Assembly: GCA_023246005.1 (NCBI GenBank)
Contig: JAHFJG010000008.1
Location: 1 to 54,408, forward strand
Origin: Candidatus Doudnabacteria bacterium
GTDB taxonomy: Bacteria; Patescibacteriota; Doudnabacteria; UBA920; O2-02-FULL-48-8
Reading direction: 5' to 3'
DNA: 54,408 bases
Of this stretch, positions 18,884 to 35,235 are shown piece after piece; the first letter of the stretch is position 1, and the number at the start of each line of letters is the position of its first letter. A model generated the notes under the pieces. That model had not been told where the DNA came from and did not search any database. It worked only from the letters and a program-made list of their open reading frames with translations. Position numbers and translations under genes: made by a program.

Positions 18884-18911
18884 ATTATACCACAAATTGT
18901 ACTATTGACAA
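18884..18911 (-). promoter_or_regulatory. lysS promoter
   Basis: TTGTCA (18911-18906) is followed by a 16-nt spacer and TATAAT (18889-18884). The leader is 23 nt and has no SD. Confidence 0.5.
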
Positions 18912-18933
18912 AATCTCTAAATCAGTGTAAACT
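18905..18933 (+). promoter_or_regulatory. Promoter of orphan cassette A
   Basis: TTGACA (18905-18910) is followed by a 17-nt spacer and TAAACT (18928-18933). Its -35 overlaps the lysS -35 by 5 bp on the opposite strand. Confidence 0.55.
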
Positions 18934-18972
18934 TGACAAAGTGCTAAAAAAAGAACTGGAGGAAAAAGACAG

Positions 18973-19188
18973 ATGGATCATGAGTTTGAGTTGATTTCGG
19001 GTGGGCAAATCGAAGAGCAAGTTGCTCGGTACGGCTTTCCAACCCTCACGTGCGAACACGTCATTCGCCTATTTCGCACCCGCCGAATTGGCGCAGGCCA
19101 AAAGAAGATCTTGGTCCGCAGGAATGAACAAGGCCATCTCATCGAGGTGGCGTGCTCGGACTGTATTCCTTCCCCGGCCCTCCCGTAG
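18973..19188 (+). CDS. Orphan small protein A (71 aa), G+C-enriched
   Basis: A GGAGG SD (18958-18962) lies 10 nt upstream. G+C is 119/216 by hand count. The gene has its own promoter and terminator. No family was recognised. Confidence 0.5.
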   Translation: MDHEFELISGGQIEEQVARYGFPTLTCEHVIRLFRTRRIGAGQKKILVRRNEQGHLIEVACSDCIPSPALP

Positions 19189-19195
19189 TAACCCG

Positions 19196-19232
19196 GCGCT
19201 TGAAGAACAATCCTCAAGCGCTTTTCTTTTTT
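19196..19232 (+). terminator. Intrinsic terminator of cassette A
   Basis: The stem GCGCTTGA (19196-19203) / TCAAGCGC (19214-19221) is followed by TTTTCTTTTTT. Confidence 0.7.
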
Positions 19233-20148
19233 ACTTTATTTTGCAAACTTGTTTTAAAGCCGCAATATCATCGATGGTTGGCTTGGTATTTTTGCTTTGA
19301 TTCAGATAATACATGATAGACATGGGATTTGAATTGTGCTCCAAACCCAACGCATGCCCCAACTCGTGCGCCAGCACTCGGACTAATTGATTCTGATCAG
19401 TGAATTCATAGATATTAACCTCGCGGCCTGATGAATCGTTTTTGTACAAGCCTTCTTCAAATTCTGGGCCACGTGACGTGCCAACACTATTGTAAGTTGC
19501 TACATTCAAATTCAGCTCCGCGCCTAAGCGGTTCAAAATATTCGCTAGGCCGTTGATATTATCCACAAGCGAATTTAAATTCTGGTTATCTTGGTTGATT
19601 TGACCGCTCTCCGAATTAAGTTGGTTTCGTTGCTGGTTTAGCTGATCAACAACGTTCCTCGGCGCGCCGCCCTGTCTGTTCCAATAATTGACGGTTTGCT
19701 CGTAGGATTGCCGTTGCTGAGTATAACTGGCAATTTCAATTTCCAAATTCTGCTTTTTTTGTTTATACTCCGCAGTCAATGAATCATATTTGGCTTTCAG
19801 GGATTGGTAAGAGCCTTGCGTATCATCAATAGTCAAACCCAAACTTTTCAGCTTATCTGTGGCCTCCTGCCGATAATCATAAACCAAATTGATTTTCAAT
19901 TTTCCATTGGGAGAATATCGATATAAATCTTTGTTAACAGCGGCGTCCCAAATCTGCGCCGCTTGATTGACATCATCTAGAAATTGATCTTGTGTAATGC
20001 CGAATTTCGGATCAAACGTGCCGAGCGAATATGTGATCGGCTGCGAGCACGGCTGAATCAGCCATGGCAAATAACCATGCTCGTAAGCAAAATATCCCCC
20101 GCCAGCAATTATCGCAATCAGTACAATTGTGGTAAATAGCCGGCGCAT
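19231..20148 (-). CDS. Membrane-anchored matrixin-like (M10) zinc metalloprotease with coiled-coil insert
   Basis: It has an N-terminal TM helix, HELGHALGLEH plus a Met-turn (SIMYY), and a ~140-aa Q/N-rich heptad-like insert. Confidence 0.75.
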   Translation of the reverse strand: MRRLFTTIVLIAIIAGGGYFAYEHGYLPWLIQPCSQPITYSLGTFDPKFGITQDQFLDDVNQAAQIWDAAVNKDLYRYSPNGKLKINLVYDYRQEATDKLKSLGLTIDDTQGSYQSLKAKYDSLTAEYKQKKQNLEIEIASYTQQRQSYEQTVNYWNRQGGAPRNVVDQLNQQRNQLNSESGQINQDNQNLNSLVDNINGLANILNRLGAELNLNVATYNSVGTSRGPEFEEGLYKNDSSGREVNIYEFTDQNQLVRVLAHELGHALGLEHNSNPMSIMYYLNQSKNTKPTIDDIAALKQVCKIK

Positions 20149-20754
20149 TTATTCCTGCTTCAAGAGTGGCGCGAATTTGGCTCGTAATTTGGCAATTTTC
20201 GGATTGATCACGACTTGACAGTAAGGTTTGTTCTGATTCTGTTCATAGTAACGTTGATGATAACTTTCTGCTGGCCAAAATTTATCCAGAGGGCGGATTT
20301 CTGTGACAACCGGATCTTTAAATGTTCCGTCATCTTCAAGTTTTTTTATAAATTCTTCAGCTTGCCGCTTCTGTTCCAAAGCGGTATAGAAAACCGCAGA
20401 CCGATACTGCTCGCCGACATCTCCTCCCTGTCGATTCAAGGTTGTCGGATCATGCATGGCAAAAAAGACATTTAATAGATCAGCATACTTAACCACACCC
20501 GGATCAAATTCAATCTTGATTGATTCAACGTGGCCGGTGTTGCCCATAGAAACTTGTTCATAGCTGGGATTAGGGGTCCTGCCGCCAGCATAGCCGGATT
20601 CAACCGACTCAACACCTTTGAGTCGCGTGAAAATGGCCTTAGTGCACCAGAAGCAACCACCGCCGAAAACGGCTGATTGTAGGTTGTTGAGCATGATATC
20701 CCTCCGGTTACGGCCATCAGGTGTGTTTGCCGGAAACTTAAAATTTTTATTCAA
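20149..20754 (-). CDS. msrA: Peptide methionine sulfoxide reductase MsrA
   Basis: It has the GGGCFWC active-site motif. An alternative start is ATG 20694. Confidence 0.9.
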   Translation of the reverse strand: MNKNFKFPANTPDGRNRRDIMLNNLQSAVFGGGCFWCTKAIFTRLKGVESVESGYAGGRTPNPSYEQVSMGNTGHVESIKIEFDPGVVKYADLLNVFFAMHDPTTLNRQGGDVGEQYRSAVFYTALEQKRQAEEFIKKLEDDGTFKDPVVTEIRPLDKFWPAESYHQRYYEQNQNKPYCQVVINPKIAKLRAKFAPLLKQE

Positions 20755-21208
20755 TATTTATTATTTCGTATTCTGTCTTGCCTGCTGGCGTTTCAACTGG
20801 AATTTTGTCTCCCCTTTTTGCACCAAGCAATGCTCGTCCGACGAGCGACTCGTTTGAAATTTTGCCAGAAGCCGGGTTGGCTTCGTTTGCGCCGACAATT
20901 GTATATTTCAAATCTTTGCCATTCATACGTATGCTGACTGTAGAACCAATGCTAACTAAATTATGATCACTCTTATGCTCAATAATCTGAGCGTTCTTGA
21001 CCATATCTTCAAGCTCCTGAATCCGGCCTTCGATGAAAGCCTGTTCTTCCTTAGCCTGGGCATAGTCAGCGTTTTCAGATAAATCTCCGTGTGAGACAGC
21101 CTCTTGGATTCGCTCAATCACTTCGTGCCTGCGGTCTTCTTTCAGGACTTTTAATTCGTCTTTGAGCTTTTTCAAACCTTCTTCAGTGAGTAGTACGGCT
21201 TTAGACAT
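20747..21208 (-). CDS. greA: Transcription elongation factor GreA
   Basis: The 153-aa product has a coiled-coil N-terminus with acidic tip residues and a GreA C-terminal domain. Confidence 0.93.
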   Translation of the reverse strand: MSKAVLLTEEGLKKLKDELKVLKEDRRHEVIERIQEAVSHGDLSENADYAQAKEEQAFIEGRIQELEDMVKNAQIIEHKSDHNLVSIGSTVSIRMNGKDLKYTIVGANEANPASGKISNESLVGRALLGAKRGDKIPVETPAGKTEYEIINIE

Positions 21209-21220
21209 ATTTTTCGATTC

Positions 21221-21246
21221 TTATAAAAGGCCCCCGACTGGGGTCC
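21221..21246 (-). terminator. Intrinsic terminator after mntH
   Basis: On the minus strand GGACCCC-AGUC-GGGGGCC is followed by UUUUAUAA. Confidence 0.55.
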
Positions 21247-21254
21247 TTGATTAC

Positions 21255-22535
21255 TTATTCGTGAATAATATACCAAATCGTAAGAATACTGGCAAGACCC
21301 ATTACCGAGGTGATCAGCCAGCCAAAAAATTTAATAACAGAGCCATTGACCCATTCCTTCATGACTTTCTGATTGGAAGACAACAATACAATGACAGCCA
21401 AAATAAACGGCGAGATAAGTCCGTTTAAAACTGCGGAATAAATCAACATTTTAATCACGTCTAAATGAAAAAAATTCATAAACAAACCCACTAGCATGGA
21501 GAGCGTGATTACTCCGTAGAATGCATAAGCCTGATTAAATTTATGATACAGACCTTCGCGCCAGCCCAAGCTTTCTGAAATTGCATAAGACGACGATCCG
21601 GCCAGTACAGGAACAGCCAGCATACCGGTGCCAATGATTCCTAAAGTAAACAACAAATAAGCCAAATTTCCGCCTAAGGGCTTGAGCGCCAAAGCGGCTT
21701 GAGCCGCGTCTTTGATATCTGTAATCCCATTAGCAAAAAGAGTAGCGCTACAAACTGCGATAATAAAAAACATTACCAGGTTTGATAAAAACATTCCTCC
21801 CCAAACGTCAAAGCGCATTCTGCTAATATCGGCCAAGCTCGTGTTCTCCTCGCGCTGTTTAATGGTGGTTTTGCCTGCTTTGATCTGCTCTTCGACTTCC
21901 TGCGAAGTCTGCCAGAAAAACAAATATGGCGAAATTGTAGTGCCCAAAATCGCGGTCAATAAAAACAAACTTTGCTTGTTAAAAACAATGCTCGGAACAA
22001 CCAAATGTTGCAGTGCCTGCGCCCAGTTAATATCAATGATCAGTCCAGTCAAGACATATGACAACAGCACCAAAGCCAGCCACTTAAGCGCTCTTGCATA
22101 AGATCTGTAAGCTGTAAAAATTTGTAAATATAGACTAAGCAATGCAAATGCGATGACAAGTACTTCAAAATTTATCGGTATTAACAATTGTAAAGATTTA
22201 GCCATGATCCCCAGATCAGCCCCTAGATTAAACGTATTGGCAACAAGCAACAAGCTAGCGCACAAATATAAAATCCATCTGGGATAATATATTCTAATCG
22301 CTCCAGCCAAACCACGGCCTGTAACAATTCCAATCCGCGCGCACATTTCCTGGACCACAGCCATGAGGGGAAACGTCAGAAGCGCAGTCCACAAAAAATT
22401 ATAACCGTAAGAGGCGCCAGCTTGCGAGTAAGTAGCAATCCCCGATGGATCATCATCAGCAGCCCCAGTCGTTAAGCCCGGCCCCAGCATGTGCCAATAT
22501 TCCTGGATTTTTATTTCGGCTTTGTTTTTGTCCAT
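21255..22535 (-). CDS. mntH: NRAMP-family divalent metal transporter
   Basis: It has about 11 TM helices, and the N-terminal segment GPGLTTGAADDDPSGIATYSQAGASYGY is typical of NRAMP/MntH. Confidence 0.88.
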   Translation of the reverse strand: MDKNKAEIKIQEYWHMLGPGLTTGAADDDPSGIATYSQAGASYGYNFLWTALLTFPLMAVVQEMCARIGIVTGRGLAGAIRIYYPRWILYLCASLLLVANTFNLGADLGIMAKSLQLLIPINFEVLVIAFALLSLYLQIFTAYRSYARALKWLALVLLSYVLTGLIIDINWAQALQHLVVPSIVFNKQSLFLLTAILGTTISPYLFFWQTSQEVEEQIKAGKTTIKQREENTSLADISRMRFDVWGGMFLSNLVMFFIIAVCSATLFANGITDIKDAAQAALALKPLGGNLAYLLFTLGIIGTGMLAVPVLAGSSSYAISESLGWREGLYHKFNQAYAFYGVITLSMLVGLFMNFFHLDVIKMLIYSAVLNGLISPFILAVIVLLSSNQKVMKEWVNGSVIKFFGWLITSVMGLASILTIWYIIHE

Positions 22536-22542
22536 TAGCTAA

Positions 22543-22571
22543 ATTATAGCCTGTCTTGACTTTTAGGGCAA
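22543..22571 (-). promoter_or_regulatory. mntH promoter (predicts a leaderless mRNA)
   Basis: TTGCCC (22571-22566) is followed by a 17-nt spacer and TATAAT (22548-22543). The ATG lies 7 nt downstream. Confidence 0.5.
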
Positions 22572-22584
22572 AAACATTCATGAT
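22556..22584 (+). promoter_or_regulatory. Candidate promoter of orphan cassette B
   Basis: TTGACT (22556-22561) is followed by a 17-nt spacer and CATGAT (22579-22584). The -10 is weak. It interdigitates with the mntH promoter. Confidence 0.35.
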
Positions 22585-22654
22585 GTATTGTCTCTGACAA
22601 AGACGAAAACCGCTTCGCCAACTCGGCCAAGTGACATTAGGAGGAGTACAAGTT

Positions 22655-23119
22655 ATGGCAAAGGTATCTGTCAAACGGTACGTTGAGCAGGTCCGTGACG
22701 GAAGCGAGTACAAAGGTTACCTGAAAATCGCCGAGACCACATTGGACTATGAGCTGAGGTTCGACATCCCGATTGACAAGCTGGATGATTCTGAACTCTT
22801 AGATGGAGTTCATGAAATTCGCCGGGTCTTCCAGCTGACTGTGAAGCGAAACGGAAAGAGGATTGAACTCACCGATGAAGAATATGGCTTCTTCTTCCGG
22901 TTGCTCGTTTTGTTCGCAGTCGAGTTCTACAACAATCCGCGAACTCGTGAAAACAACCAAGGCCTTCTGGGAATGACCTTGCGTGGCAAGGGAGAGATAT
23001 CAGCTTTCGGAGTTTCCTCTTCGATCGGGATTACGAGCAGCAACTCGTATGACATCCCGTCTGGACTGTGTGAGACCTTGAACGCGCCGAAGTTTGGGTG
23101 CGCAATCAACGGCACCTGA
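22655..23119 (+). CDS. Orphan protein B (154 aa), G+C-enriched
   Basis: An AGGAGG SD (22639-22644) lies 10 nt before ATG 22655. The ORF track starts it at GTG 22631. No family was recognised. Confidence 0.5.
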   Translation: MAKVSVKRYVEQVRDGSEYKGYLKIAETTLDYELRFDIPIDKLDDSELLDGVHEIRRVFQLTVKRNGKRIELTDEEYGFFFRLLVLFAVEFYNNPRTRENNQGLLGMTLRGKGEISAFGVSSSIGITSSNSYDIPSGLCETLNAPKFGCAINGT

Positions 23120-23130
23120 ACAATCATGCT

Positions 23131-23214
23131 GGGGACGAAGGTCATCTTGACTTCGTCCCCTCCCCACCATCCCCAAACCCCGACACTACGATCGGGGGTA
23201 AGAGGGATTTTTTT
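23131..23214 (+). terminator. Compound GC-rich terminator of cassette B
   Basis: A 10-bp hairpin GGGGACGAAG/CTTCGTCCCC (23131-23160) is followed by CCCCGA/TCGGGG and a T7 run (23208-23214). Confidence 0.55.
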
Positions 23215-23251
23215 ATTGCCCAAATCTACCCAGGCGAATGCCGAGGTGGGT

Positions 23252-25180
23252 TTACTTTTTATACCTATTCTCTGCCCACCAAGCATACACCGCCTTGGCC
23301 ACTGGTCCGCCCACAGCATAACCTTCCCCGCCGCCTTCGACTAACACTGTCACAGCAATCTGCGGGTTATCCGATGGCGCGTAAGATGTGAACCAAGCAT
23401 GCGCGCGGTTTGGATTATGCGGATCGAACTGAGCAGTGCCAGTTTTGGCAGAGACAGCAATTGGCAGAGTATTAAGAGCCCTGCCAGTGCCCTGGGTTAC
23501 AGTCTGGCGCATACCATCTTGGACTATTTTAATCACATTTGGGTCAAAAATATTCTCAGCTAAAACTTTAGGCATTCCTTTGGCTAAAATTTTCCCATTT
23601 TTATCATTAACTTCATTCAATACATATGGCTGCATGACCCGTCCACCATTCGCAATGGTTGCAGTCCAACTATTAACTTGCAGTGGGGTGGCCAAAACAT
23701 CTCCTTGGCCGATTGATTCATGATATGTATCGCCCAAATACCATGTTTCTTTTTTCACTTGCTTCTTCCAAACAGGATCAGGCACAAGCCCTGGTTTTTC
23801 AGCAGGCAAATCAATTCCTAATTTCTGGCCCAAATAAAACTTCCGCAAATACTCGGCAATCTTATCAGGCCCCAGACCATTCTTCACAGGACTTTTCGGG
23901 TTGCCGCCGCCCACGCTATAAAAATAAATATCTGATGATCTCGCAATAGCCGAATAAATATCCATAATGCCAAGCCCAGATCTTTCATAACCATAAAAAG
24001 CATACTGGCCGACTCGAATCACGCCATCATCTAAAATTTTTGTTTGAGGAGTAACTACTTTTTCTGTTAAGGCAGCAACAGCCATCATGGGTTTGATTGT
24101 TGAACCTGGCGGATACTGGCCGGAAATCGCGCGATTCAAAAAAACATTATCGGAATTAGCGTTAAGCTTGGCATAATCATCTTTGGAAATTCCCTTTGCA
24201 AATAAATTATTATCAAACGACGGCAAGGAAACCAAAGCCATGATCTCGCCAGTATAAGGATTGGTAATCACCGCGGCCGCTTTTTTGCTTTTAACTACAT
24301 TCAGCTCGGCAGTCAAGTTATTATAGAGTGTTTTCTGTAAATCATAATCAATATTAAGTTTAACATTGTTGCCAAGAACAGGTAGCACTTCCGCCAGTGT
24401 CCGCTTATAATTTCCCTGCGCATCAATTTCTGCCTGCTTCCTGCCATTAGTACCATGCAAAAATTGTTCGTACCAATACTCAATGCCGGTTTTGCCAATA
24501 TCATCATTTGACGCGTAAGTATTATTCTTTTGAATTAATTCGTCTTGGGTAATTTTGCCAGTGTAACCTACTAAGTGGGTAAAGACTAACGAGTCTTTAT
24601 AATCGCGGATAGCGCTATCATCAGCCACAAAACCTTTTAAATCATTCTGCTTAGCAATCAAAATTAAAGCTTGATCTTTGGTAATGTCTTGGACTAAAGT
24701 CTGGCCTTGATACGATTTTGGCTGCATTTTTGCGATAATGTCTTGCAATTCCGAGTTGTCTTTACCTAATATAGCGGCAACTTTTGTCAGTTCAGCAAGA
24801 AATTGAGATTGATCAAGCGGCAAATCAGCTGTAATAACATCTAGTTCAAAACTCGGAGTATTCGAGGCAATCACCTTGCCAAAGCGATCCAAGACCAAGC
24901 CTCTGGGAGCTAAAACATATTGGATGCGAAGTTTATTGCCTTCAGCTAAAATTTTATACTCCGAGCCTTTGATAACTTGCAAAAAAAGAATCCGACCAAA
25001 CAAAAAACACAAACAAACAAAAATAATTCCTCCCAAGACGCGATAATTGACTGAATCGCGCTCATCATCCAATGTTGTAGCATCATCAATTTGCAAATCC
25101 AAAAACGCCTCATCGTAGCTTAGATTTTTGTTCGCGTGGATTTTAGCCTTTAAATTTTTGATTTCAAATGGGTCACCCAT
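23252..25180 (-). CDS. mrdA: Penicillin-binding protein 2 (elongasome transpeptidase)
   Basis: It has an N-terminal TM helix and the SxxK (STIKP), SSD and KTGTA motifs. It lies downstream of mreBCD. Confidence 0.9.
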   Translation of the reverse strand: MGDPFEIKNLKAKIHANKNLSYDEAFLDLQIDDATTLDDERDSVNYRVLGGIIFVCLCFLFGRILFLQVIKGSEYKILAEGNKLRIQYVLAPRGLVLDRFGKVIASNTPSFELDVITADLPLDQSQFLAELTKVAAILGKDNSELQDIIAKMQPKSYQGQTLVQDITKDQALILIAKQNDLKGFVADDSAIRDYKDSLVFTHLVGYTGKITQDELIQKNNTYASNDDIGKTGIEYWYEQFLHGTNGRKQAEIDAQGNYKRTLAEVLPVLGNNVKLNIDYDLQKTLYNNLTAELNVVKSKKAAAVITNPYTGEIMALVSLPSFDNNLFAKGISKDDYAKLNANSDNVFLNRAISGQYPPGSTIKPMMAVAALTEKVVTPQTKILDDGVIRVGQYAFYGYERSGLGIMDIYSAIARSSDIYFYSVGGGNPKSPVKNGLGPDKIAEYLRKFYLGQKLGIDLPAEKPGLVPDPVWKKQVKKETWYLGDTYHESIGQGDVLATPLQVNSWTATIANGGRVMQPYVLNEVNDKNGKILAKGMPKVLAENIFDPNVIKIVQDGMRQTVTQGTGRALNTLPIAVSAKTGTAQFDPHNPNRAHAWFTSYAPSDNPQIAVTVLVEGGGEGYAVGGPVAKAVYAWWAENRYKK

Positions 25181-25665
25181 GATTGTACGACTGAATAATA
25201 TTTATATACGGGATAAGTAAAAAGTAAATTAAAAAATAAATTTGAGATCAGTTTATCACCAAAAAAATATTTATAATCCATGACGTGATTCAGATGAAAA
25301 ACTAAAAAAATACTGTTTAATCCAAGAAATACAAAAAAATAAATAATTGTTGTAATTGCAACCGAACTAAACAAAATCAACATGCTTGGCTCTTTGTGCA
25401 GCAGCGTATGCAGAATGAAATACATAATTAAAAAAATCGAAAACATAGTCATGCTGATAATTCCATCTGCTGAACCTGAAATCAAATCCAGCATGACCCC
25501 CCCGATCAAAGCTATGGCCAAAGAAGTGTCAAAATCAGAAATAACGATTGCGACCACGAGAAAAACCAAAATCAGATTTACGGCAGTTATCTGAAGCGGC
25601 ATTAGCGCGCCGATTTGGATAACTAACAAAAAGAAAATTGAAAACAACCAAATCAAATACTTCAT
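25150..25665 (-). CDS. mreD: Rod shape-determining protein MreD
   Basis: This small polytopic membrane protein lies between mreC and mrdA. Confidence 0.7.
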   Translation of the reverse strand: MKYLIWLFSIFFLLVIQIGALMPLQITAVNLILVFLVVAIVISDFDTSLAIALIGGVMLDLISGSADGIISMTMFSIFLIMYFILHTLLHKEPSMLILFSSVAITTIIYFFVFLGLNSIFLVFHLNHVMDYKYFFGDKLISNLFFNLLFTYPVYKYYSVVQSWVTHLKSKI

Positions 25666-26462: not shown

Positions 26463-26464
26463 AG

Positions 26465-26517: not shown

Positions 26518-26530
26518 AACTGTTCATTGA

Positions 26531-27589: not shown

Positions 27590-27625
27590 CAGGAAGAAAT
27601 TAATGAGGGTTTTTTTATTTTTTTG

Positions 27626-28861
27626 TTATGCTCTAAGCGTTTTTGTTAAGTTTTTAATATTTACGATTTGAGATTCTTTGCTATCGCGAGCTTTAATTTC
27701 TACAGAGTCTTCTTTCAAGGTCTTGTCTGACATCAAAATTCTAATCGGAATCCCAATTAAGTCAGCATCAGCAAATTTTTCGCCGGCCGAGGCATCCCTT
27801 TGATCATATAATACTGAAAATTTTTGTTCCTGTAAAGTTGCATATAATTTATCCGAAGCCTCCCTATCAGACGCAATATTTATAAGATGCAAATCAACCG
27901 GAGAAACGGATTTGGGCCAGATAATTCCTTTATCATCATGGAATTTTTCTACAATCACGCCCATTAACCGTGAAATTCCCAAACCATAACACCCCATCAC
28001 TGGATATTGCTTCTTGTTATCCTTGTCTTTAAAACCCAAATCAAAGTCTTGGCCGTATTTTTGGCCTAAATCAAAGACATTGCCGACCTCTGACGCTTTG
28101 GCAAAATTTAGTTTTCCATTGCCACACTTTGGGCACTTGTCCCCGGTTTTTTGTTTAGCAATTTCCAGATTCACGCAAAACTCGCAAACATCGCAATACA
28201 AAATATTATCCTCGCCGGCATCAGTCAGCACCATGAACTCATAGGAAATTTTGTTGCTGAAAGCGCCTCCAGATGCTTCTGTGACTTTGGCTACTAAACC
28301 AATCCGCTCAAAAATTTTCAGATAAGCTTGTTTGACTATTTCGTAATACCTTTCAAAATCCTGTTGGTTCTCATGAAAGCTGTACATATCCTTCATGTAA
28401 AATTCCCGACCGCGAAGAAGGCCGGATTTGGATCGCAATTCATCACGATACTTCCAGCCGATTTGATATACGCTTTTTGGCAAATCTTTATAAGTATCCA
28501 CATACTTCATCACCAGCGGCATGACCACTTCTTCTTCACTTTGGCCCAAAGCGTAATCCTTTTCGGTTCGGCTTTTGATTTTAAATAGAACATCCACTTT
28601 GTCCCAAGCGCCGGTTTTTTTCCAAATTTCCGCCGGATGCAAAGCCGGCATCAAAATCTCTTGTCCGCCATTTGCATCCATTTCTTCCCGCACAATTTGG
28701 GCGATTTTTTTCAAAGTCAAAAAGCCCAGAGGCAAATATGAATATACGCCAGCCATAAGTTTATTGACAAAACCAGCCCGAACCAAAAGTTGGGCGTTCG
28801 TGGTTTCCTCGTCTTTCGGCGCTTGCCGCAAAGTTTTTGTGAATAATTCAGATTGCAACAT
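27626..28861 (-). CDS. proS: Prolyl-tRNA synthetase (short form without INS editing domain)
   Basis: The start was chosen at ATG 28861 (MLQSELF...). It has a class IIa core. A CxxC-N18-CxxC mini-insert sits where bacterial ProRS carries the INS domain. Confidence 0.9.
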   Translation of the reverse strand: MLQSELFTKTLRQAPKDEETTNAQLLVRAGFVNKLMAGVYSYLPLGFLTLKKIAQIVREEMDANGGQEILMPALHPAEIWKKTGAWDKVDVLFKIKSRTEKDYALGQSEEEVVMPLVMKYVDTYKDLPKSVYQIGWKYRDELRSKSGLLRGREFYMKDMYSFHENQQDFERYYEIVKQAYLKIFERIGLVAKVTEASGGAFSNKISYEFMVLTDAGEDNILYCDVCEFCVNLEIAKQKTGDKCPKCGNGKLNFAKASEVGNVFDLGQKYGQDFDLGFKDKDNKKQYPVMGCYGLGISRLMGVIVEKFHDDKGIIWPKSVSPVDLHLINIASDREASDKLYATLQEQKFSVLYDQRDASAGEKFADADLIGIPIRILMSDKTLKEDSVEIKARDSKESQIVNIKNLTKTLRA

Positions 28862-28867
28862 AAAGTA

Positions 28868-28896
28868 ATTATAGCAAGCCGCAAAAACCTTGACAA
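28868..28896 (-). promoter_or_regulatory. proS promoter (predicts a leaderless mRNA)
   Basis: TTGTCA (28896-28891) is followed by a 17-nt spacer and TATAAT (28873-28868). The ATG lies 6 nt downstream. Confidence 0.55.
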
Positions 28897-28918
28897 AAGG
28901 GCGCAAAATACTTTAATG
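28890..28918 (+). promoter_or_regulatory. Promoter of cassette C
   Basis: TTGACA (28890-28895) is followed by 16-17 nt and TTTAAT/TTAATG (28912-28918). Its -35 overlaps the proS -35 by 5 bp. Confidence 0.5.
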
Positions 28919-29148
28919 TGCAGTGTTCATCAAAGGATTACGAAGTAATTGAAGCTTGCGTCCTTGGCTATATTGCCAGACATGAAGAGCAGCGTATTTT
29001 TCAGGTTCCCGAACGCCGAGAATTAGTTCTGAACATGAGCAAAGGGATCGGTCAATTGCTACATGTGCTCATCATGAAGGCCTTGCAAAAGCGCCTCAGC
29101 AACGCGCACGAACGTGAAGTGTTTCATTGGGCTCAAACGACCGATTAA
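28918..29148 (+). other. Cassette C transcription unit; coding status unresolved (76-codon GTG ORF or ~300-nt RNA)
   Basis: The GTG start coincides with the predicted -10, so it may not be transcribed. There is no SD. G/C-ending codons occur only in the second half. The unit ends at a strong terminator. Confidence 0.3.
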
Positions 29149-29171
29149 ATCCTTCTCACTCTCATCGCTCA

Positions 29172-29222
29172 CCCCATGCCATACCAGACGCAAAAACGTC
29201 TAGGTACAGGGGTTTTCTTTTT
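29172..29222 (+). terminator. Intrinsic terminator of cassette C
   Basis: The structure is CCCC..TACC-[AGACG/CGTCT]-GGTA..GGGG followed by TTTTCTTTTT. The tail GGGGTTTTCTTTTTGCC is identical to that at 34659-34675. Confidence 0.65.
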
Positions 29223-29268
29223 GCCAAAAAGCGAGAAACAAAAATTGACATCACATCAATCTTACTTA

Positions 29269-29308
29269 ATTCTACGCATTTTGACCGATCGGTCAATTTA
29301 CGTATAAT
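29269..29308. promoter_or_regulatory. Palindromic operator TTGACCGATCGGTCAA with -10-like hexamers on both sides (3' of the regulator gene)
   Basis: A perfect 16-bp palindrome lies at 29281-29296. On the + strand TTGACC-16-TATAAT ends at 29303-29308. On the - strand TTGACC-16-TAGAAT ends at 29274-29269. Confidence 0.55.
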
Positions 29309-29319
29309 TCTATTTATCA

Positions 29320-29841
29320 CTATTTGTACATTACTCTACCTTCAATAATACTGACATTAAGCTCAATCTTTAACTCTTTCAACAACTCTTTAAATTCAGG
29401 ATGTAATTCCCAAGGTCCGATCATTACGCTTTTTTGTAAATTAATAAATCCATTATCTTTTAGAAACCTTCTCAAGAACCTTCTTGCTTTGCGCTTGGCT
29501 TCAGGAATATCAAATATAACGATTGTTGCGAAACCGTTGACTTTAGTAATTTTCGGCTTCTTCGAATATGAATATTTCAAACTTTTGGCTCTGCCTAAAT
29601 CAGTGATAGTATAATAAAATTTCTTGTCCTTTTTGACTTTCTTGATTAAACCTTTTCTATTCAATTCCCAAAATGCCCGGGAAACCTTATATCGATCGTA
29701 ATAACGTAGTCTTTGAATGTGATGATTCTTGCCTTCGAATGGATAAGGAATCGCTTCCCCAATATCTCTCAAAAACCACAAAATCTCGTTTGTGACCGAC
29801 TCAACCCTATTTCTTATTTTCCTTTTAGTTGATCTGTTCAT
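29320..29841 (-). CDS. wHTH + Cas2/VapD-like-fold regulator (PaaX-like), paralog 1
   Basis: It has a winged-helix segment (YKVSRAFWELNRKGLIKK...YYTITDLGRAK) and a ferredoxin-like module (TIVIFDIPE..RRFLRRFLKDNGFINLQKSVMIG..VSIIEG). It is a paralog of 34756-35229. Confidence 0.7.
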   Translation of the reverse strand: MNRSTKRKIRNRVESVTNEILWFLRDIGEAIPYPFEGKNHHIQRLRYYDRYKVSRAFWELNRKGLIKKVKKDKKFYYTITDLGRAKSLKYSYSKKPKITKVNGFATIVIFDIPEAKRKARRFLRRFLKDNGFINLQKSVMIGPWELHPEFKELLKELKIELNVSIIEGRVMYK

Positions 29842-29845
29842 ATCA

Positions 29846-29885
29846 AGTATACGTGTTTTGACCGATCGGATATTTTACGTATAAA
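29846..29885. promoter_or_regulatory. Operator/promoter region upstream of paralog 1
   Basis: The 27-nt core at 29858-29884 matches 29281-29307 at 24/27 positions, in direct orientation. On the - strand a TATACT -10 lies 4 nt before the ATG. On the + strand there is TTGACC-16-TATAAA. Confidence 0.5.
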
Positions 29886-29912
29886 CACAAAATTTTCTTC
29901 TATCAAAAATGT

Positions 29913-31034
29913 TTAACTAAATATCCTTTGGAACAAATGCTTGAATTGCGTGCCATAATGATTTACGTCCTTGAACGTGACAACGATCATAAGCAAAATC
30001 AATAACGCAAAGCCGATTGTGTTGGCGATTTGTTCAACCTTTATATCTAGTTTCCGGCCGCGGATTTTTTCAATTATCAGAAACAAGACTCGCCCGCCGT
30101 CCAAGGCTGGAAACGGTATGGCGTTGATAATTGCCAAATTCACTGACAAGACAGCTATAAATTGCAAAAGATAAATAAACCCAAGCGCCGTGACATCGCG
30201 GGTCAAAACCGCAATGCCCACCGGGCCGGAAAGCGCGGCCGCCACCTGCTGGCCTTGCAAAAACTGTACGATTAAAGACATGAAGGTTGTCAAAGTTAGA
30301 GCAATCAAACCAAAAACTGCTATGGCTCCCCTGAATGGGGCTTCATACCAAGGATATGAAACAAACGCCACGCTTGCCAATGCCACTCCCAGCGGTCCTT
30401 GGCCTTGTGGCGGATTAAGACGCGGGGTAATTGACCGGTCAAACACATCAGACCCGCGTTTAATCGTATACGTCGTTGCTTGACCAGCGTCTTTCTCTGT
30501 GGCGGTCTGCGCATCTTGAATGGAATTAATCGGCTGATTATTGATTTTTAAAATTGAATCGCCAACTTTCAGTCCAGCCACAGCAGCAGGAGTGTTGTCG
30601 CCGACCTCAACCACTCCAACACTGACTGTACTAATGCGCGCTGATTGCGGAAGCTGGTCACCCTCGCCAATTATAGTCGGTAACCCCAGTCCCATGCCAA
30701 TTGAAATCAAAACCCAGGCCAAAACAACGTTCATGGACACGCCGGCAATCAAAACCGTGAATCTCTGCCATGCTGATTTGTTGCCAAAACTTTCTGGATC
30801 TGATAAATCAGAACCATCTTCACCGACAATTTTTACAAATCCGCCAAGTGGAATTAGATTAATCGAATAAAGAGTTTGGCCGCGCCTGATGCCAAACAAT
30901 CTTGGCGGAAAACCAAATCCAAATTCATCCACCCGCATACCAGCTCGTTTGGCCATGACAAAGTGCCCGAGTTCATGCACAAACACGAGAATGCCGAGAA
31001 TGATTATAAAGACGATTATGGTAAGTAGGATCAT
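29913..31034 (-). CDS. rseP: Site-2 protease RseP/M50 family
   Basis: It has HELGHF, a PDZ domain and a C-terminal NxxPxxxLDGG motif (NAIPFPALDGG). Confidence 0.9.
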   Translation of the reverse strand: MILLTIIVFIIILGILVFVHELGHFVMAKRAGMRVDEFGFGFPPRLFGIRRGQTLYSINLIPLGGFVKIVGEDGSDLSDPESFGNKSAWQRFTVLIAGVSMNVVLAWVLISIGMGLGLPTIIGEGDQLPQSARISTVSVGVVEVGDNTPAAVAGLKVGDSILKINNQPINSIQDAQTATEKDAGQATTYTIKRGSDVFDRSITPRLNPPQGQGPLGVALASVAFVSYPWYEAPFRGAIAVFGLIALTLTTFMSLIVQFLQGQQVAAALSGPVGIAVLTRDVTALGFIYLLQFIAVLSVNLAIINAIPFPALDGGRVLFLIIEKIRGRKLDIKVEQIANTIGFALLILLMIVVTFKDVNHYGTQFKHLFQRIFS

Positions 31035-31054
31035 TAAATTGAATTATGAATATC

Positions 31055-31087
31055 GAATTAGGAATTAGTGCCCGGGATTCCTGATTC
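31055..31087. repeat. 11-bp hairpin built from GGAAT repeats in the frr-rseP spacer
   Basis: GAATTAGGAAT (31055-65) pairs with ATTCCTGATTC (31077-87) around a CCCGGG-containing loop. The 3' arm lies in three tandem (AT)TCCTG/GATTCCT units (31077-31096). It is related to 3737-3791. Confidence 0.45.
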
Positions 31088-31094
31088 CTGATTC

Positions 31095-31655
31095 CTAAAT
31101 TGTCATTACTTCTTTTTCTTTGGCCTCTGAAACTTTCTTGATTTCGTCATTGTATTTATCCACGATTTTTTGCAATTCTTCACGCCCGGAAATTTTGTCA
31201 TCTTCGCTAATATGTCCATCTTTTTCCATTTTTTGGATTTCTTTCCAAATATCTTCTCTGGCATTACGAATTGAGACTCGCGCCTTCTCACCCATCTGGC
31301 TGACAATCTTGACTAATTCTTTTCTTCGCTCTTCTGTCATCTGCGGGATCGTGAGGCGAATATACGTGCCGTCATTCACAGGATTAATTCCCAGATTTGA
31401 AGTTTGCACCGCTTTCTCAATATCCTTTAAGGCGTTTTTGTCATAGGGCTGAATCGCGATTGAACGCGGCTCCGGTACTGTAATCTGGGCAATCGCAATC
31501 AGTTCGGCAATGGAACCATAATATTCTACTTGCAAATGCTCGACTAATCCGGCTGACGCGCGCCCGGTTCGCAAAGTTGCTAATTCAGATCTTAAATGCT
31601 CCAAGGTTTTCTGAAACTCTGATTCTTTTTTGGAAATTATATCGTGATTGAACAT
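31095..31655 (-). CDS. frr: Ribosome recycling factor
   Basis: The 186-aa product has the canonical RRF sequence (LRTGRAS..LV..V.VEYYG). Confidence 0.95.
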   Translation of the reverse strand: MFNHDIISKKESEFQKTLEHLRSELATLRTGRASAGLVEHLQVEYYGSIAELIAIAQITVPEPRSIAIQPYDKNALKDIEKAVQTSNLGINPVNDGTYIRLTIPQMTEERRKELVKIVSQMGEKARVSIRNAREDIWKEIQKMEKDGHISEDDKISGREELQKIVDKYNDEIKKVSEAKEKEVMTI

Positions 31656-31656
31656 A

Positions 31657-32721
31657 TTATTGTCTTGGGGCGGCTAATCCCAAATAAATTAAATTATTGG
31701 CTTGGGGATTGATTAATATCCTACGCACTTCTGATTGAGTGGGCAAAATTTTCGTTTCCCAAGTCAAGCCGCCGTTCGCACTCTTAAATATGGTTGAGCT
31801 AACAGCTACAAACAAATTATTCGAATTGTTAGGATTAACTGACAAGGCAGACACACGAAGCGAGGTGTTCTTCTCGGGTAATCCCAAGAAAGACCAATTT
31901 ACGCCGTCATTAGTTGAACGATACAAACCTTCTTGCGTTCCTAAATATAACACTCCCGGCTGTCGCTGGTCTAATGCCATATCATAAAACGCGCTGACCG
32001 AAGACGGGGCTTGATCAAAGCTGCTTACCGAAGATTTAGTCAAAAGATCAGAAATCATGGTCCAGCTAATACCTTGATCCGTACTCTTAATTAATCCTTT
32101 ATGAAAAGTTAAGGCATAAGCCGTGCCAGAAGTATTAAACAGAATTTTCGTTATGCGATCAGCAAAATCTTTCGAAGCCTGCCACGTATGCCCTTTATCA
32201 ACTGAACGGAGAATTTCACCTGTTGTTAATCCTGCTAATACCAAAGAGTTGCTGCGCCCAACTGCTATGGACAAGACCGTATTATTTTTTGAAGGTTCGG
32301 TATAGATGTCGACCCAAGACACGCCGCCATCCAAACTTTTAATTATCTTGCCATTGGCGCCGACAATGCCAGCCGCATAAATTACATTTGATTGTAATGG
32401 ATCAAGCGCTATATCCGCAATTGTGATGCCAGATAATATATATCGCCAGGATTTGGCCGCATCTTCGGATTTATATATCCCGTTTGATGAACCCAGATAA
32501 AGCGTGTCTGGTCTGCTGGGATCAAATACCAGAGAGTTGACGCCGATGCCGCTGATGTCGCCTTTTTTTTGCAAAATATTGGCCGCGGAGTAAGTCTCGC
32601 CGCTGTCTTCTGACTTCACCACACCTCGTGTCCCAGTGCCCAAATCAAACAACCCGCCAGTCAAATCGCAGCTAGCCGCCATAAATGTTAAGCCTAAAAG
32701 CAGAATGAAAAATTTCTTCAT
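31657..32721 (-). CDS. BNR/Asp-box repeat beta-propeller lipoprotein (Ycf48-like)
   Basis: It has a lipobox (LTFMAASC) and repeated SxDxGxTW-type motifs (SLDGGVSW, SVDKGHTW, STDQGISW, STNDGVNW, SANGGLTW). Confidence 0.7.
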   Translation of the reverse strand: MKKFFILLLGLTFMAASCDLTGGLFDLGTGTRGVVKSEDSGETYSAANILQKKGDISGIGVNSLVFDPSRPDTLYLGSSNGIYKSEDAAKSWRYILSGITIADIALDPLQSNVIYAAGIVGANGKIIKSLDGGVSWVDIYTEPSKNNTVLSIAVGRSNSLVLAGLTTGEILRSVDKGHTWQASKDFADRITKILFNTSGTAYALTFHKGLIKSTDQGISWTMISDLLTKSSVSSFDQAPSSVSAFYDMALDQRQPGVLYLGTQEGLYRSTNDGVNWSFLGLPEKNTSLRVSALSVNPNNSNNLFVAVSSTIFKSANGGLTWETKILPTQSEVRRILINPQANNLIYLGLAAPRQ

Positions 32722-33455
32722 GTGTTTATCATCAAATTAGTTAGCAATAATTTTGAATTCACATTCTGATCCAGATATCGTCGGGACAAAGCGACTTGGC
32801 TGATTTTTTGAGCCAAATTTTTCGAAGCGCTGATATGCAGTTCAGTTTGCAGAATTTTGAGCCAAAGATCTAAAATATTTTTTATTTCTGAAGTTTCCAA
32901 ATCGGCAATATCATAAGCGGCAATTAATTTATCAGCCAGTTGTGCTTGAGTAAAAATTTTATAAAACTCCGCCGCTCTGCTAGATTCTTCAGTGACTTCT
33001 TCCGGCCTTTCCAAAACACCAAAAGTTATTTTTTGCGCACGAGACAAAATTGTTTTTGGCAGACGCTGAGCATTGCTTGTAATCAAAATAATATATGTGT
33101 AGTTCTTTGGCTCTTCCAGCGATTTGAGCAAAGCATTGGCTGCTTCGGTAGTCATCTCATCAGCGTGATTAATCACCGCGACTTTATATTTGGCTGAATA
33201 AGGCTTAAGAGCAAGTTTATAGATCAAATCGCGAATCTGCTCAATCTTAATGCCCTCGTTGCTATTGATTTCCAAAAGATCAGGATGGAAATCCTTGTCT
33301 GACCCAATTAACTCATGCGCCAATTTCATGGCAATGGTTTTCTTGCCAATACCTTCAGGCCCGGCAAAAATAAAAGCATGCGCCAGCTTGCCACGCTCAA
33401 GGCCGTTTTCCAAAAATTCTAATTGTTTCTTATGCCCCAAAATACCTTCAAACAT
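32718..33455 (-). CDS. holB: DNA polymerase III delta' subunit
   Basis: It has an AAA+ clamp-loader fold with the motifs HAFIFAGPEGIGKKT and SRAQ. Confidence 0.85.
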   Translation of the reverse strand: MFEGILGHKKQLEFLENGLERGKLAHAFIFAGPEGIGKKTIAMKLAHELIGSDKDFHPDLLEINSNEGIKIEQIRDLIYKLALKPYSAKYKVAVINHADEMTTEAANALLKSLEEPKNYTYIILITSNAQRLPKTILSRAQKITFGVLERPEEVTEESSRAAEFYKIFTQAQLADKLIAAYDIADLETSEIKNILDLWLKILQTELHISASKNLAQKISQVALSRRYLDQNVNSKLLLTNLMINT

Positions 33456-33461
33456 GGCTGA

Positions 33462-33490
33462 ATTATAACAGTTTGGCCTAGTATTGACAA
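33462..33490 (-). promoter_or_regulatory. holB promoter (predicts a leaderless mRNA)
   Basis: TTGTCA (33490-33485) is followed by a 17-nt spacer and TATAAT (33467-33462). The ATG lies 6 nt downstream. Confidence 0.55.
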
Positions 33491-33512
33491 AAGCCTACAA
33501 ATTATGTATATT
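33484..33512 (+). promoter_or_regulatory. Promoter of the D-E orphan operon
   Basis: TTGACA (33484-33489) is followed by a 17-nt spacer and TATATT (33507-33512). Its -35 overlaps the holB -35 by 5 bp. Confidence 0.6.
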
Positions 33513-33550
33513 TTTATGTTGCACATTCCGTGCATGAAGGAGGAATATGC

Positions 33551-34039
33551 TTGAAGGGCATGATCGTTTACTCATTCGCTTGGCGAAAAAAAGGACACAG
33601 TCCTTGCAATATTCGCTTAGCAGAAGGAGCTAAGCGAATCATCGAAGCCCAGGACGAACCAGTTTTGGTTTTCGCCCAGCGCACTACAGCGCTGGTTCTC
33701 AAAGAGCTTAGCGTGGAATGTCAGATCGTACCGAAGCGGTCAAGTTACGAAGGATCCGAAGTGCTCACTCGGCAGCCCGCAGAGGTATTTAAGGAAAACG
33801 GAATCACTGAAGTCATTCCCGTGGCTCAGCCGTTTCTGCAACTGACGAAGTGCATTCAACTGGTTCACAAGGAAGGTTTTCGGACTCCGTCGTTTTTCAA
33901 ACTCGTGTCCCTGATCGGTTGGATCGGATTTGATCGAGAATCAGTTCAACCTTGGACGCGAGGTCTGTTCCGGCTGGTGTTCTACACTGCCAGACAGATT
34001 CTGTTCAGCTACAAGCCACCGCCAGAACTTTCAGAATAA
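33551..34039 (+). CDS. Orphan protein D (~160 aa), G+C-enriched
   Basis: An AAGGAGG SD (33537-43) lies 7 nt before TTG 33551. Alternative starts are GTG 33530 and ATG 33560. Codon usage is foreign (CTG, CGG, CCG). Any DUF218/YdcF-like resemblance is only weak. Confidence 0.5.
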   Translation: MKGMIVYSFAWRKKGHSPCNIRLAEGAKRIIEAQDEPVLVFAQRTTALVLKELSVECQIVPKRSSYEGSEVLTRQPAEVFKENGITEVIPVAQPFLQLTKCIQLVHKEGFRTPSFFKLVSLIGWIGFDRESVQPWTRGLFRLVFYTARQILFSYKPPPELSE

Positions 34040-34180
34040 CCTCCACTCCGTTAGCAAAACGGGAAATGAGTAATTTGCTTTAGAGAATCTATTTCTTCTC
34101 AAACTCTCGAATGAATCGCTCAGGACTCGCGGCATGTCGCTGCGGTCCCCCGTCTGCGGACGGAGAGGGAGGGTAGGCCG

Positions 34181-34540
34181 ATGTCGAACCCGAACCTGGT
34201 GGCCCCGGAGCTCGAGACCCTGGCGCGCGACCTTTCGCAGTCGTCTTCCGTTGAGGTGTTCTACCTCGACGACCAAGGCGCACCGCAGAAGGCCGCGTAC
34301 TACTCCCAATCATTGGGGGACGCCGTCCGTATCGAGATGAAACCACACCTCGTGGTAACTCGTCAGATACAGGACGACTCCGACCCCGAGAGCTGGAGTA
34401 CCGAAGATGTTTCCATCCCACTCGAAAGAGTGCTGATGGCCAACATCTCGGTGAGCGATGAATGGGCTCCCTCCGGGGAGATCCAGTCATCGCAGTGGGT
34501 CAACGGCCCCCACGGCAAACTCCTGCGGCTCGTGCCGTAG
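34181..34540 (+). CDS. Orphan protein E (119 aa), strongly G+C-rich
   Basis: A GGGAGGG SD lies 7 nt before the ATG. G+C is 219/360, and 94/120 codons end in G/C by hand count, which is coding-type periodicity. No family was recognised. Confidence 0.65.
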   Translation: MSNPNLVAPELETLARDLSQSSSVEVFYLDDQGAPQKAAYYSQSLGDAVRIEMKPHLVVTRQIQDDSDPESWSTEDVSIPLERVLMANISVSDEWAPSGEIQSSQWVNGPHGKLLRLVP

Positions 34541-34576
34541 GAGTTCAGGGGACCCGCGGCAATCATGCAAAGTGCT

Positions 34577-34621
34577 GATGGGACATTCTCCCATCCCCGG
34601 CAACAGCTTGTCTGTTGCCGG
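34577..34621 (+). other. Two GC-rich hairpins in the 3' UTR of gene E
   Basis: The hairpins are GATGGGA/TCCCATC (34577-34595) and CCGGCAACAG/CTGTTGCCGG (34597-34621). They lie directly upstream of the terminator. Confidence 0.5.
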
Positions 34622-34626
34622 GCACG

Positions 34627-34672
34627 CCCCGTACCGTCCGCCTCCGGCGGACTGGTGCGGGGTTTTCTTTTT
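34627..34672 (+). terminator. Intrinsic terminator of the D-E operon
   Basis: The structure is CCCCGTACC-[GTCCGCC/GGCGGAC]-GGTGCGGGG followed by TTTTCTTTTT. It has the same architecture and tail as 29172-29222. Confidence 0.7.
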
Positions 34673-34724
34673 GCCCAAAATTATTACTAACTGATTATTA
34701 GTAATATATTACATATTGTCTATA

Positions 34725-34754: not shown

Positions 34755-34755
34755 G

Positions 34756-35229: not shown

Positions 35230-35235
35230 ACATTG

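Follow-up and report, generated by a model that had tools for sequence, protein, structure and literature searches.

Small G+C-rich genes set against a Doudnabacteria housekeeping array are probably native, and one of them is very probably both a protein gene and a structured RNA

Where do small genes come from that differ from all their neighbors in strand and composition? The question is raised by a 54,408-nucleotide (nt) stretch of DNA from a Candidatus Doudnabacteria bacterium (contig JAHFJG010000008.1; the window, below), in which five plus-strand open reading frames (ORFs) occupy four intergenic cassettes. We call them O1 (18973-19188), O2 (22655-23119), O3 (28918-29148), O4 (33551-34039) and O5 (34181-34540). 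A first-pass annotation of the window described these ORFs as compositionally foreign orphan genes, either captured from elsewhere or forming a dispersed accessory gene set. All five are present where it placed them, and from 10.1 kb on the recognized genes are indeed on the minus strand, except for one PEGA-domain gene. However, we favor a different origin. We think that O1, O2, O4 and O5 are probably native, long-resident small-protein genes of Doudnabacteria-like bacteria whose composition is intrinsic, and not recent imports. O5 is the most notable of them.

The G+C content of the window is 41.6%. Its minus-strand genes run in the order lysS-M10 peptidase-msrA-greA-mntH-mrdA-mreDCB-proS-rseP-frr-holB-mreB2-murA-murB, followed by glycolysis genes, and this gene order and the best matches place the window in the Patescibacteria. 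We compared it with loci from related genomes, which are given L-numbers here. The closest genome by proS is L005, a Candidatus Doudnabacteria metagenome-assembled genome (MAG; 81%), and the best synteny with the window is found in L018, L029 and L095.

O5 has the marks of a protein-coding gene. The ratio of nonsynonymous to synonymous substitution (dN/dS) in frame 0 is 0.21 between the window and L087 and 0.12 between L093 and L095, compared to at least 0.7 in the shifted frames. Stop codons across the homologs are found only in shifted frames, and the differences among homologs are mostly at third codon positions. Relatives of O5 range from 84 to 24% identity (the metagenome scan for them used a five-sequence alignment), and the start and stop positions and the peptide motifs are conserved down to 24-35% identity. 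Upstream of the ATG, all eight homologs have GGAGG and seven of the eight have GGAGGTG, at a spacing of ~4-8 nt that holds for the window as well. The product has an isoelectric point (pI) of 4.4 and a grand average of hydropathy (GRAVY) of -0.39.

We are confident that O5 is both coding and structurally constrained. The 573-nt O5 transcript has a predicted folding energy of -298 kcal/mol, compared to -226.6±7.1 for dinucleotide shuffles (z = -10.1). The coding sequence (CDS) alone gives z-scores of -6.8 on the plus strand and -6.1 for the reverse complement, and the homologous CDSs give -4.8 to -12.2; the mean for 34 housekeeping segments that served as controls is -0.17±1.1, with a minimum of -2.9. 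When synonymous codons were permuted with the protein and the codon usage held fixed, eight of eight O5 homologs beat 60 of 60 permutations (z of -3.3 to -8.3), and the same procedure gave z of about -3 for O2 and O4 and about 0 for O1, O3 and controls. The structure is also conserved. In a protein-guided codon alignment of six O5 homologs, RNAalifold gave -88.6, compared to -38.7±4.5 for column shuffles that preserve codon position (z = -11), and there were 28 doubly compensated pairs, compared to 13±2.7 in the shuffles. In an independent MAFFT nucleotide alignment, 94 pairs were 90.6% paired, compared to 35-40% when the partners were slid, and 22 pairs had changed on both sides, compared to 11.0±2.2 in shuffles (0 of 500) and 6-9 in the slid controls. 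The 5' and 3' regions of the transcript are predicted to pair, and its Shine-Dalgarno (SD) sequence is predicted to be partly occluded. One CUC-GAAA-GAG tetraloop of the GNRA type encodes the L-E-R of a PLERVL peptide motif; in L085, where the Glu has changed to Gly, the loop becomes GGGA and GNRA is retained.

The G+C excess of O5, four-fold degenerate sites included, is best read as the cost of encoding these helices, because the conserved RNA structure across the 5' untranslated region (UTR), CDS and 3' UTR uses third positions for G-C pairs. The O5 homologs are 58-65% G+C, with a third-position G+C (GC3) of 0.70-0.83, between flanks of 31-46% G+C. The four-fold sites of O5 are 79% G+C, but they are constrained and paired. 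Between the window and L095, the proportion of synonymous differences (pS) in O5 is 0.51 and 35% of the four-fold sites differ. Five flanking housekeeping genes, by comparison, have a pS of 0.72-0.83, with differences at 62-74% of these sites. In further O5 pairs, 26-44% of the four-fold sites differ, where saturation would give 65-68%. We considered RNase P RNA, transfer-messenger RNA (tmRNA) and riboswitches as the source of the G+C islands and rejected them. Rfam and ARAGORN detected no known RNA and no tRNA or tmRNA genes in the window, and codon periodicity and dN/dS show that O5 is coding. No Rfam 15 family matched at gathering thresholds in the window, and at E <=10 only chance-level matches were found (18700-35300).

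The composition of the other ORFs is less uniform than the first-pass annotation had it. Its hand counts are exact (O1, 55.1% G+C; O5, 60.8% G+C and a GC3 of 0.783, with 94 of 120 codons ending in G or C), but its statement that all five ORFs are G+C-enriched is not. In 41 minus-strand housekeeping genes, the G+C is 0.41±0.04 and the GC3 0.41±0.05, with a maximum GC3 of 0.51. Against this baseline, O5 (GC3 of 0.78), O1 (0.63) and O2 (0.62) are clear outliers and O4 (0.52) is marginally high only. O3, at a G+C of 0.47 and a GC3 of 0.49, is ~1-2 standard deviations from the housekeeping genes and has no excess. Likewise, in 201-nt sliding windows, only the O5 island (maximum of 0.67) rises clearly above the internal peaks of housekeeping genes (up to 0.60).

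The GC3 excess of O2 and O4 is a signature of codon choice, in favor of C-ending and also G-ending two-fold codons, and not of a donor genome, a distinction that we regard as decisive. The two-fold NNY codons of O2 and O4 end in C at a frequency of 0.67-0.75, compared to 0.21-0.28 in their hosts, and the A/C/G/T composition of their four-fold sites is close to that of the host. A gene from a G+C-rich donor would show the opposite. Both families keep the excess in hosts of 37-48% G+C: O2 homologs have a GC3 of 0.61-0.71, compared to 0.31-0.51 for the long genes of their hosts, and O4 homologs are 0.11-0.13 above theirs. Because synonymous sites are near saturation in homolog pairs of O2, O4 and O1, a neutral donor signature would have decayed, and the bias must therefore be maintained rather than inherited from a donor. 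Translational selection alone is not an adequate cause: the glycolytic genes, MreB and RRF of the window have no preference for NNC codons (0.25), so that codon selection, if it acts, is specific to these small genes. RNA structure was likewise rejected as the cause in O2 and O4, where the single-sequence z of about -3 is accompanied by no alignment-level signal and no excess covariation.

These genes also differ from their neighbors in how translation seems to start. The first-pass annotation remarked that GGAGG-type SD sequences are uncommon among housekeeping starts, and the difference is more pronounced than that. O1, O2, O4 and O5 (but not O3) have GGAGG 4-11 nt ahead of their starts, and none of the 41 housekeeping starts as listed has it, or one of them if msrA starts at 20694. 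For msrA (20149-20754, minus strand), the start is probably this ATG (181 amino acids [aa], as gene callers have it) and not the TTG at 20754. The SD is conserved in all O2 homologs, and the variable genes found beside O5 in relatives carry GGAGG or GGAG/GAGG; the housekeeping genes of L095 and L018 have no such SD. At the operon-first genes proS (28861/28906), holB (33455), mntH (22535) and paaX2 (35229), TATAAT is found 6-8 nt before the ATG. The same arrangement is present at holB of L095 and L018 and at the M10 peptidase gene of L018, and it suggests that operon-first genes have leaderless mRNAs. Thus, O1, O2, O4 and O5 appear to be led by a canonical strong SD, whereas the housekeeping genes appear to be SD-less and the operon-first ones look leaderless. 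Surveys of 16S rRNA have reported reduced detection of the anti-SD in Parcubacteria (PMC9297842). Beyond that anti-SD survey, we found no paper that deals with small G+C-rich genes in Patescibacteria, or with how far these bacteria use SD-led as opposed to leaderless starts, and none that describes a class of SD-led, GC3-biased small genes there.

Each cassette had been assigned its own promoter and terminator. Promoter-like pairs are present in cassettes 1, 2 and 4, and cassette 3 has only a -35 with a poor -10; a hairpin with a T-tract follows all four cassettes, although that of cassette 2 is atypical. In cassettes 1 and 4, the plus-strand -35 TTGACA overlaps the -35 TTGTCA of the divergent gene (lysS and holB, respectively), which makes two strict cases where 0.38 are expected, and the shared arrangement at holB is conserved in L095. 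We infer that divergent promoters with overlapping -35 regions are mutually exclusive or competing.

If the cassettes were recent arrivals, the corresponding gaps in relatives might be empty, as the first-pass annotation proposed to check. At two of the sites they are not. At least three relatives (L095, L018 and L029) have a G+C-rich O5 between holB and mreB2, on the strand opposite to the housekeeping genes, and a homolog of O1 lies at the same site in L100, next to the M10 peptidase homolog, with the same SD context and a similar G+C (56%). Upstream of O5, the window carries O4; L018 and L029 carry a coiled-coil protein of 198 or 215 aa, L095 a 108-aa protein, L093 a cupin and L085 a 115-aa ORF. 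Judged by gene content, the intergenic gaps are variable slots in which O5 and O1 are kept across relatives and the neighboring small genes are swapped.

The 108-aa protein gene of L095 (5372-5698) corresponds to the C-terminal half of a fusion in L086 (84-692) whose N-terminus is a cold-shock (RNA-chaperone) domain, a possible functional link to the structured O5 RNA.

Several observations weigh against a native origin. G+C-richness and an SD are also what one would expect of imports from an SD-using, G+C-richer donor. O2 and O4 are not syntenic across genomes, and their homologs occur in unrelated contexts. The gap in L005 has neither O4 nor O5 and holds a cupin gene instead, and the upstream partner of O5 differs in every relative. 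This turnover and the L005 gap indicate gene gain and loss at these sites, and some of the genes may have arrived by transfer among Patescibacteria. The covariation test of O5 used six sequences, two pairs of which are close relatives. Lastly, RNA structure does not explain the G+C excess of O1 (z of about 0), and codon class does not do so in a sample of this size.

How far do these points favor another origin? Capture from a G+C-richer, SD-using donor such as a host bacterium, with composition not yet adjusted, would account for the excess in O1, O2 and O5, for SDs that the housekeeping genes lack, for gap contents that vary among relatives, and for O5 four-fold sites as G+C-rich as those observed. 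Nevertheless, we consider it very unlikely. In relatives so diverged that the synonymous sites of their housekeeping genes are saturated, the same genes occupy the same sites and have the same composition; O2 and O4 resemble the host at four-fold sites, and covarying RNA helices account for the composition of O5. In addition, the named members of the families are all from Patescibacteria, no relatives of the ORFs were found among IMG/VR viral contigs, and the cassettes showed neither an integrase nor a tRNA gene and no direct repeats on either side. Exchange of small ORFs among Patescibacteria at intergenic hotspots, with a G+C that reflects a pool average or G+C-biased gene conversion, is a better alternative but still, we think, an unlikely one. 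It fits the scattered contexts of O2 and O4 homologs, the replacement of partner genes beside O5, and L088, where small genes of 49-56% G+C lie amid genes of 33-40% G+C near a recombinase and a reverse transcriptase. However, O5 and O1 are syntenic over divergences at which the synonymous sites of their neighbors are saturated, some O4 homologs lie within housekeeping operons on the same strand, and pool composition or gene conversion would raise four-fold G+C, which is not seen in O2 and O4. What remains of the first-pass description is the accessory gene set, as a class with its own promoters, SDs and codon or structure bias in variable gaps, and not the foreign source.

Two further alternatives would take away the genes themselves. 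O5 could be a structured non-coding RNA whose ORF is a by-product of G+C-richness. Its extreme folding z-scores and covarying helices, the GNRA tetraloop that survives an amino-acid change, and the long ORFs that are open in the other frames and on the opposite strand in the window are all compatible with this. We give it even less credence than foreign capture, since purifying selection is specific to one frame, with homolog stops only in the others, third-position differences predominate, start, stop and peptide motifs persist at low identity, and GGAGG(TG) precedes the ATG at a regular distance in all eight homologs and the window. Least of all do we credit an artefact of assembly or annotation, in which the cassettes are chimeric contigs or chance ORFs in G+C-rich spacers. 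O3 does look like a chance ORF, but O1, O2, O4 and O5 have homologs at the protein level. The concern about chimeric assembly is also answered: cassettes with both flanks recur in 3 or 4 independent ENA and Logan assemblies, from several samples, and therefore are not chimeras.

We return to the reading that these are native genes and ask how they might work. We postulate that each unit is transcribed alone, from a promoter that is back-to-back with that of a housekeeping operon, and that transcription would end at a strong terminator. In cassettes 1 and 4, the divergent promoters would share a TTGACAA -35. Translation would start from a canonical strong SD, unlike that of the SD-less housekeeping genes, and nucleotide-level selection on synonymous sites would make native genes look foreign. 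The structure of O5 could make its mRNA compact, resistant to nucleases and probably long-lived while throttling translation, or it could make a dual-function RNA, and a strong SD might be needed to translate so structured an mRNA. More speculatively, there could be two translation regimes, one leaderless or SD-independent for housekeeping genes and one a conditional regulon of SD-led small genes, with O5 as a dual-function member that is perhaps under PaaX-like control; we hold this only tentatively and would not be surprised to see it fail. If it is true, translation of the small genes might be limited, for example, to conditions in which the anti-SD is free, or might depend on standby binding to structured mRNAs. 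O5 would then provide a multi-hairpin RNA with GNRA loops and an acidic protein, controlled by a convergent PaaX-like repressor that is bracketed by palindromes.

There is a caution here for other genomes. In A+T-rich, SD-poor genomes, a gene that is G+C-rich, SD-led and apparently orphan resembles foreign DNA but can belong to a native class, and the split of GC3 into two-fold and four-fold sites, with tests of synonymous constraint, separates the two. The strict division between SD-led small genes and SD-less or leaderless housekeeping genes makes Parcubacteria-type translation start directly testable. O5 itself is an unusually clear bacterial protein gene whose entire CDS is conserved, covarying RNA structure, and it offers a tractable model for the sharing of synonymous sites between coding and structure, and for the link between mRNA structure, stability and the strength of the SD in Patescibacteria.

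Several known systems resemble parts of this arrangement. Highly structured or dual-function bacterial RNAs include RNAIII/hld of Staphylococcus aureus, SgrS/SgrT and hok-type toxin mRNAs. Like these, the O5 transcript encodes a protein and has extensive conserved structure, with predicted 5'-3' pairing and a partly occluded SD, and it combines purifying selection on the ORF with conserved, covarying structure and a stability excess. Unlike these, its structure spans the whole 360-nt CDS, with covariation and synonymous-site constraint, and its product is an acidic soluble protein of 119 aa and not a short peptide or membrane toxin. The same properties (119 aa, pI of 4.4, GRAVY of -0.39) set O5 apart from type I toxin-antitoxin systems of the hok/sok kind, in which the toxin is hydrophobic and smaller than ~60 aa. 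In Bacteroidota, strong SDs are kept by only a few genes. The window is similar in that a strong canonical SD is confined to a small minority of its genes and is missing from the housekeeping genes, but the genes that have one here are small, GC3-biased and transcribed independently. The cassettes share with acquired islets and ORFans their atypical composition, small size, position between core genes and varying content among relatives. They differ in that O5 and O1 are syntenic, the composition is kept across hosts, O2 and O4 match the host at four-fold sites, and mobility genes, tRNA genes and flanking repeats are lacking. They are also unlike integron cassettes: the units are dispersed and have promoters and terminators of their own, and neither an integrase nor an attC-like repeat common to the units was found. 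Finally, the GC-IGR and DIMPL pipelines use G+C-rich intergenic regions as markers of structured non-coding RNAs (ncRNAs) in A+T-rich genomes, and most such regions turn out to be ORFs, with 2948 of 4714 filed as known ORFs (PMC11109978, PMC8723152, PMC6429828). The O5 island likewise is G+C-rich in an A+T-rich genome and marks selection on RNA structure. However, O5 is an ORF under purifying selection with covarying structure, and O2 and O4 are GC3-rich without conserved structure.

Table 1. Positions of the cassette features and of the two paaX-like genes in the window
Feature	Position	Strand	Remarks
Cassette 1, promoter-like site	18905..18933	+	TTGACA-17-TAAACT; -35 overlaps the opposite-strand lysS -35 TTGTCA (18911..18884)
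O1: GGAGG SD (18958-18962) and 71-aa CDS (18973-19188)	18958..19188	+	
Cassette 1, intrinsic terminator	19196..19232	+	GCGCTTGA...TCAAGCGC then TTTTCTTTTTT
Cassette 2, promoter-like site	22556..22584	+	TTGACT-17-CATGAT; 9 of 12 matches
O2: AGGAGG SD and 154-aa CDS (22655-23119)	22639..23119	+	
O2 3' UTR	23131..23217	+	Two G+C-rich hairpins; after the second, a short spacer, then a T-tract (atypical terminator)
Cassette 3	28890..29222	+	TTGACA -35, poor -10, doubtful O3 (28918-29148), terminator-like hairpin with T-tract (29172-29222)
paaX1 (29320-29841) and flanking palindromes	29268..29884	-	40-nt copies at 29268-29307 and 29845-29884; core TTTGACCGATCGG
Cassette 4, promoter	33484..33512	+	TTGACA-17-TATATT; -35 overlaps that of the divergent holB promoter (33490..33462); site and leader conserved in L095
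O4: AAGGAGG SD and 162-aa CDS from TTG 33551	33537..34039	+	
O4-O5 spacer (O5 5' UTR)	34040..34180	+	Hairpins 34128-34148 and 34150-34164; GGAGG SD 34168-34172
O5: gene for a 119-aa acidic protein	34181..34540	+	CDS-wide hairpins, conserved and covarying
O5, main conserved helices	34221-34302, 34324-34376, 34402-34450, 34451-34495	+	
O5 3' UTR	34577..34672	+	Hairpins 34577-34595 and 34596-34622; intrinsic terminator 34627-34672
paaX2 (34756-35229) and its own palindromes	34715..35275	-	40-nt copies at 34715-34754 and 35236-35275; convergent with O5

The failure to recognize a protein family for any of the five products was borne out by searches of Pfam, PHROGs, NCBIfam and PADLOC, which were empty for all five ORFs and also for the gap ORFs of L018; profile searches of the PDB gave nothing below an E of 0.3. 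Even so, the term orphan is wrong for O2, O4 and O5, which have families of homologs, and O1 has a single distant relative. O2, O4 and O5 define conserved, Patescibacteria-specific families without a Pfam match (the comparison for O5 was limited to sequence). We also rejected paralogy within the set of five or with the gap ORFs of relatives: BLASTP returned only the O5 family and the coiled-coil pair of L018 and L029.

The individual products offer a few leads. The relative of O1 in L100 (~40% identity) shares a C-E-H...C-x-x-C motif, which suggests that O1 is a small zinc-binding protein. O2 has 47 homologous clusters at 46-65% identity, and all of the named ones are from Patescibacteria. Its C-terminus (23070-23119) carries a family-invariant C-x2-L-x2-PKFGC motif followed by a tail of 2-4 residues; the AlphaFold model, with a predicted local distance difference test score (pLDDT) of 85, has no significant Foldseek match in the PDB or BFVD. 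O3 is probably not a gene. It has a GTG start and no SD, and its -10 (TTTAAT) is without the key A. None of the loci searched here holds a relative, neither folding nor composition gives a signal, and gene callers skip it in long contigs.

O4 has 50 homologous clusters at 42-74% identity, and again all of the named ones are from Patescibacteria. The family consensus, MKGMIVYSF, confirms the TTG start. The AlphaFold model is confident (pLDDT of 93), and its best Foldseek match, to MGS-like/Rossmann domains, is weak (E of 0.036 and a template modeling [TM] score of ~0.4). One homolog carries a precomputed PF02142 match. O4 may thus have a Rossmann or MGS-like fold, as predicted from the model with weak similarity. 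The leader that follows the cassette 4 promoter (33513-33553) contains a GTTGCACATTCCGTGCA hairpin, then AAGGAGGA and ATG, and it is kept in L095 (~5235-5270), with a mini-ORF of 5 codons (MRPKI*) after it in place of O4. This could be a leader that is conserved as such, or a module with an upstream ORF. Around the O4 homolog of L088 (3350-16229), there are ~20 G+C-rich small hypothetical genes, interleaved with annotated genes and adjoining a serine recombinase and a reverse transcriptase, and this array indicates that G+C-rich small genes are a wider feature in some Patescibacteria.

Two genes for PaaX_M/Cas2-like winged-helix proteins, paaX1 and paaX2, face cassettes 3 and 4 in convergent orientation. 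Their products match PF20803 (PaaX_M, Cas2-like) at E of 1.2e-15 and 1.1e-13 and have weak N-terminal matches to PadR, TrmB and PaaX winged helices. The PaaX_M domain and the N-terminal winged helix are as in the PaaX family. In contrast to that family, these regulators are only 157-173 aa long and gave no match to a C-terminal PaaX domain. Phenylacetate genes are lacking in the vicinity, and each regulator gene has a copy of its own palindrome on either side. The palindrome core TTTG[AT]CCGATCGG occurs 6 times, compared to 0.11 expected. The convergent pair of O5 and paaX2 is conserved in the window, L094/L095 and L029, and PaaX-like orthologs are bracketed by their own, different palindromes in L095 (6448-6478 and 7036-7066) and L029 (2071-2108 and 2662-2699). 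These elements are 30-40 nt and differ among paralogs and orthologs, and each resembles a pair of promoters set back to back, with the -35 boxes in the center; the palindrome 3' of O5 holds an outward-facing promoter-like site on the minus strand (34722..34694). That the palindromes differ between orthologs suggests co-evolution of operator and regulator.

Other observations concern the surroundings of these regulators. The tails of three cassette terminators are nearly identical, GGGGTTTTCTTTTTGCC(C/A)AAA (23204-23225, 29209-29230 and 34659-34680), and in cassettes 3 and 4 this shared tail lies 56-59 nt before a paaX palindrome, as if a module of terminator, palindrome, paaX and palindrome had been duplicated. 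In L084, an Uhrbacteria MAG, two palindromes with the CCGATCGG core, GGTCCGATCGGACC and TGTCCGATCGGACA (4540-4553 and 4627-4640), are upstream of a G+C-rich two-gene unit (4826-5326 and 5330-5671) between gyrA and rpmF. Lastly, a candidate conserved, structured ncRNA of ~240 nt is found between paaX2 and mreB2 at 35726-35963 on the minus strand (35726-35995 in the window with its promoter included), with a putative promoter (-35 TTGACC, 35995-35990; -10 TATAAT, 35972-35967) and terminator (35743-35726). It has no Rfam match, and of the 87 pairs in a three-sequence alifold consensus, 19 are compensated. A core of 27 nt is found again in L005, L018, L029, L087, L093, L094 and L095.

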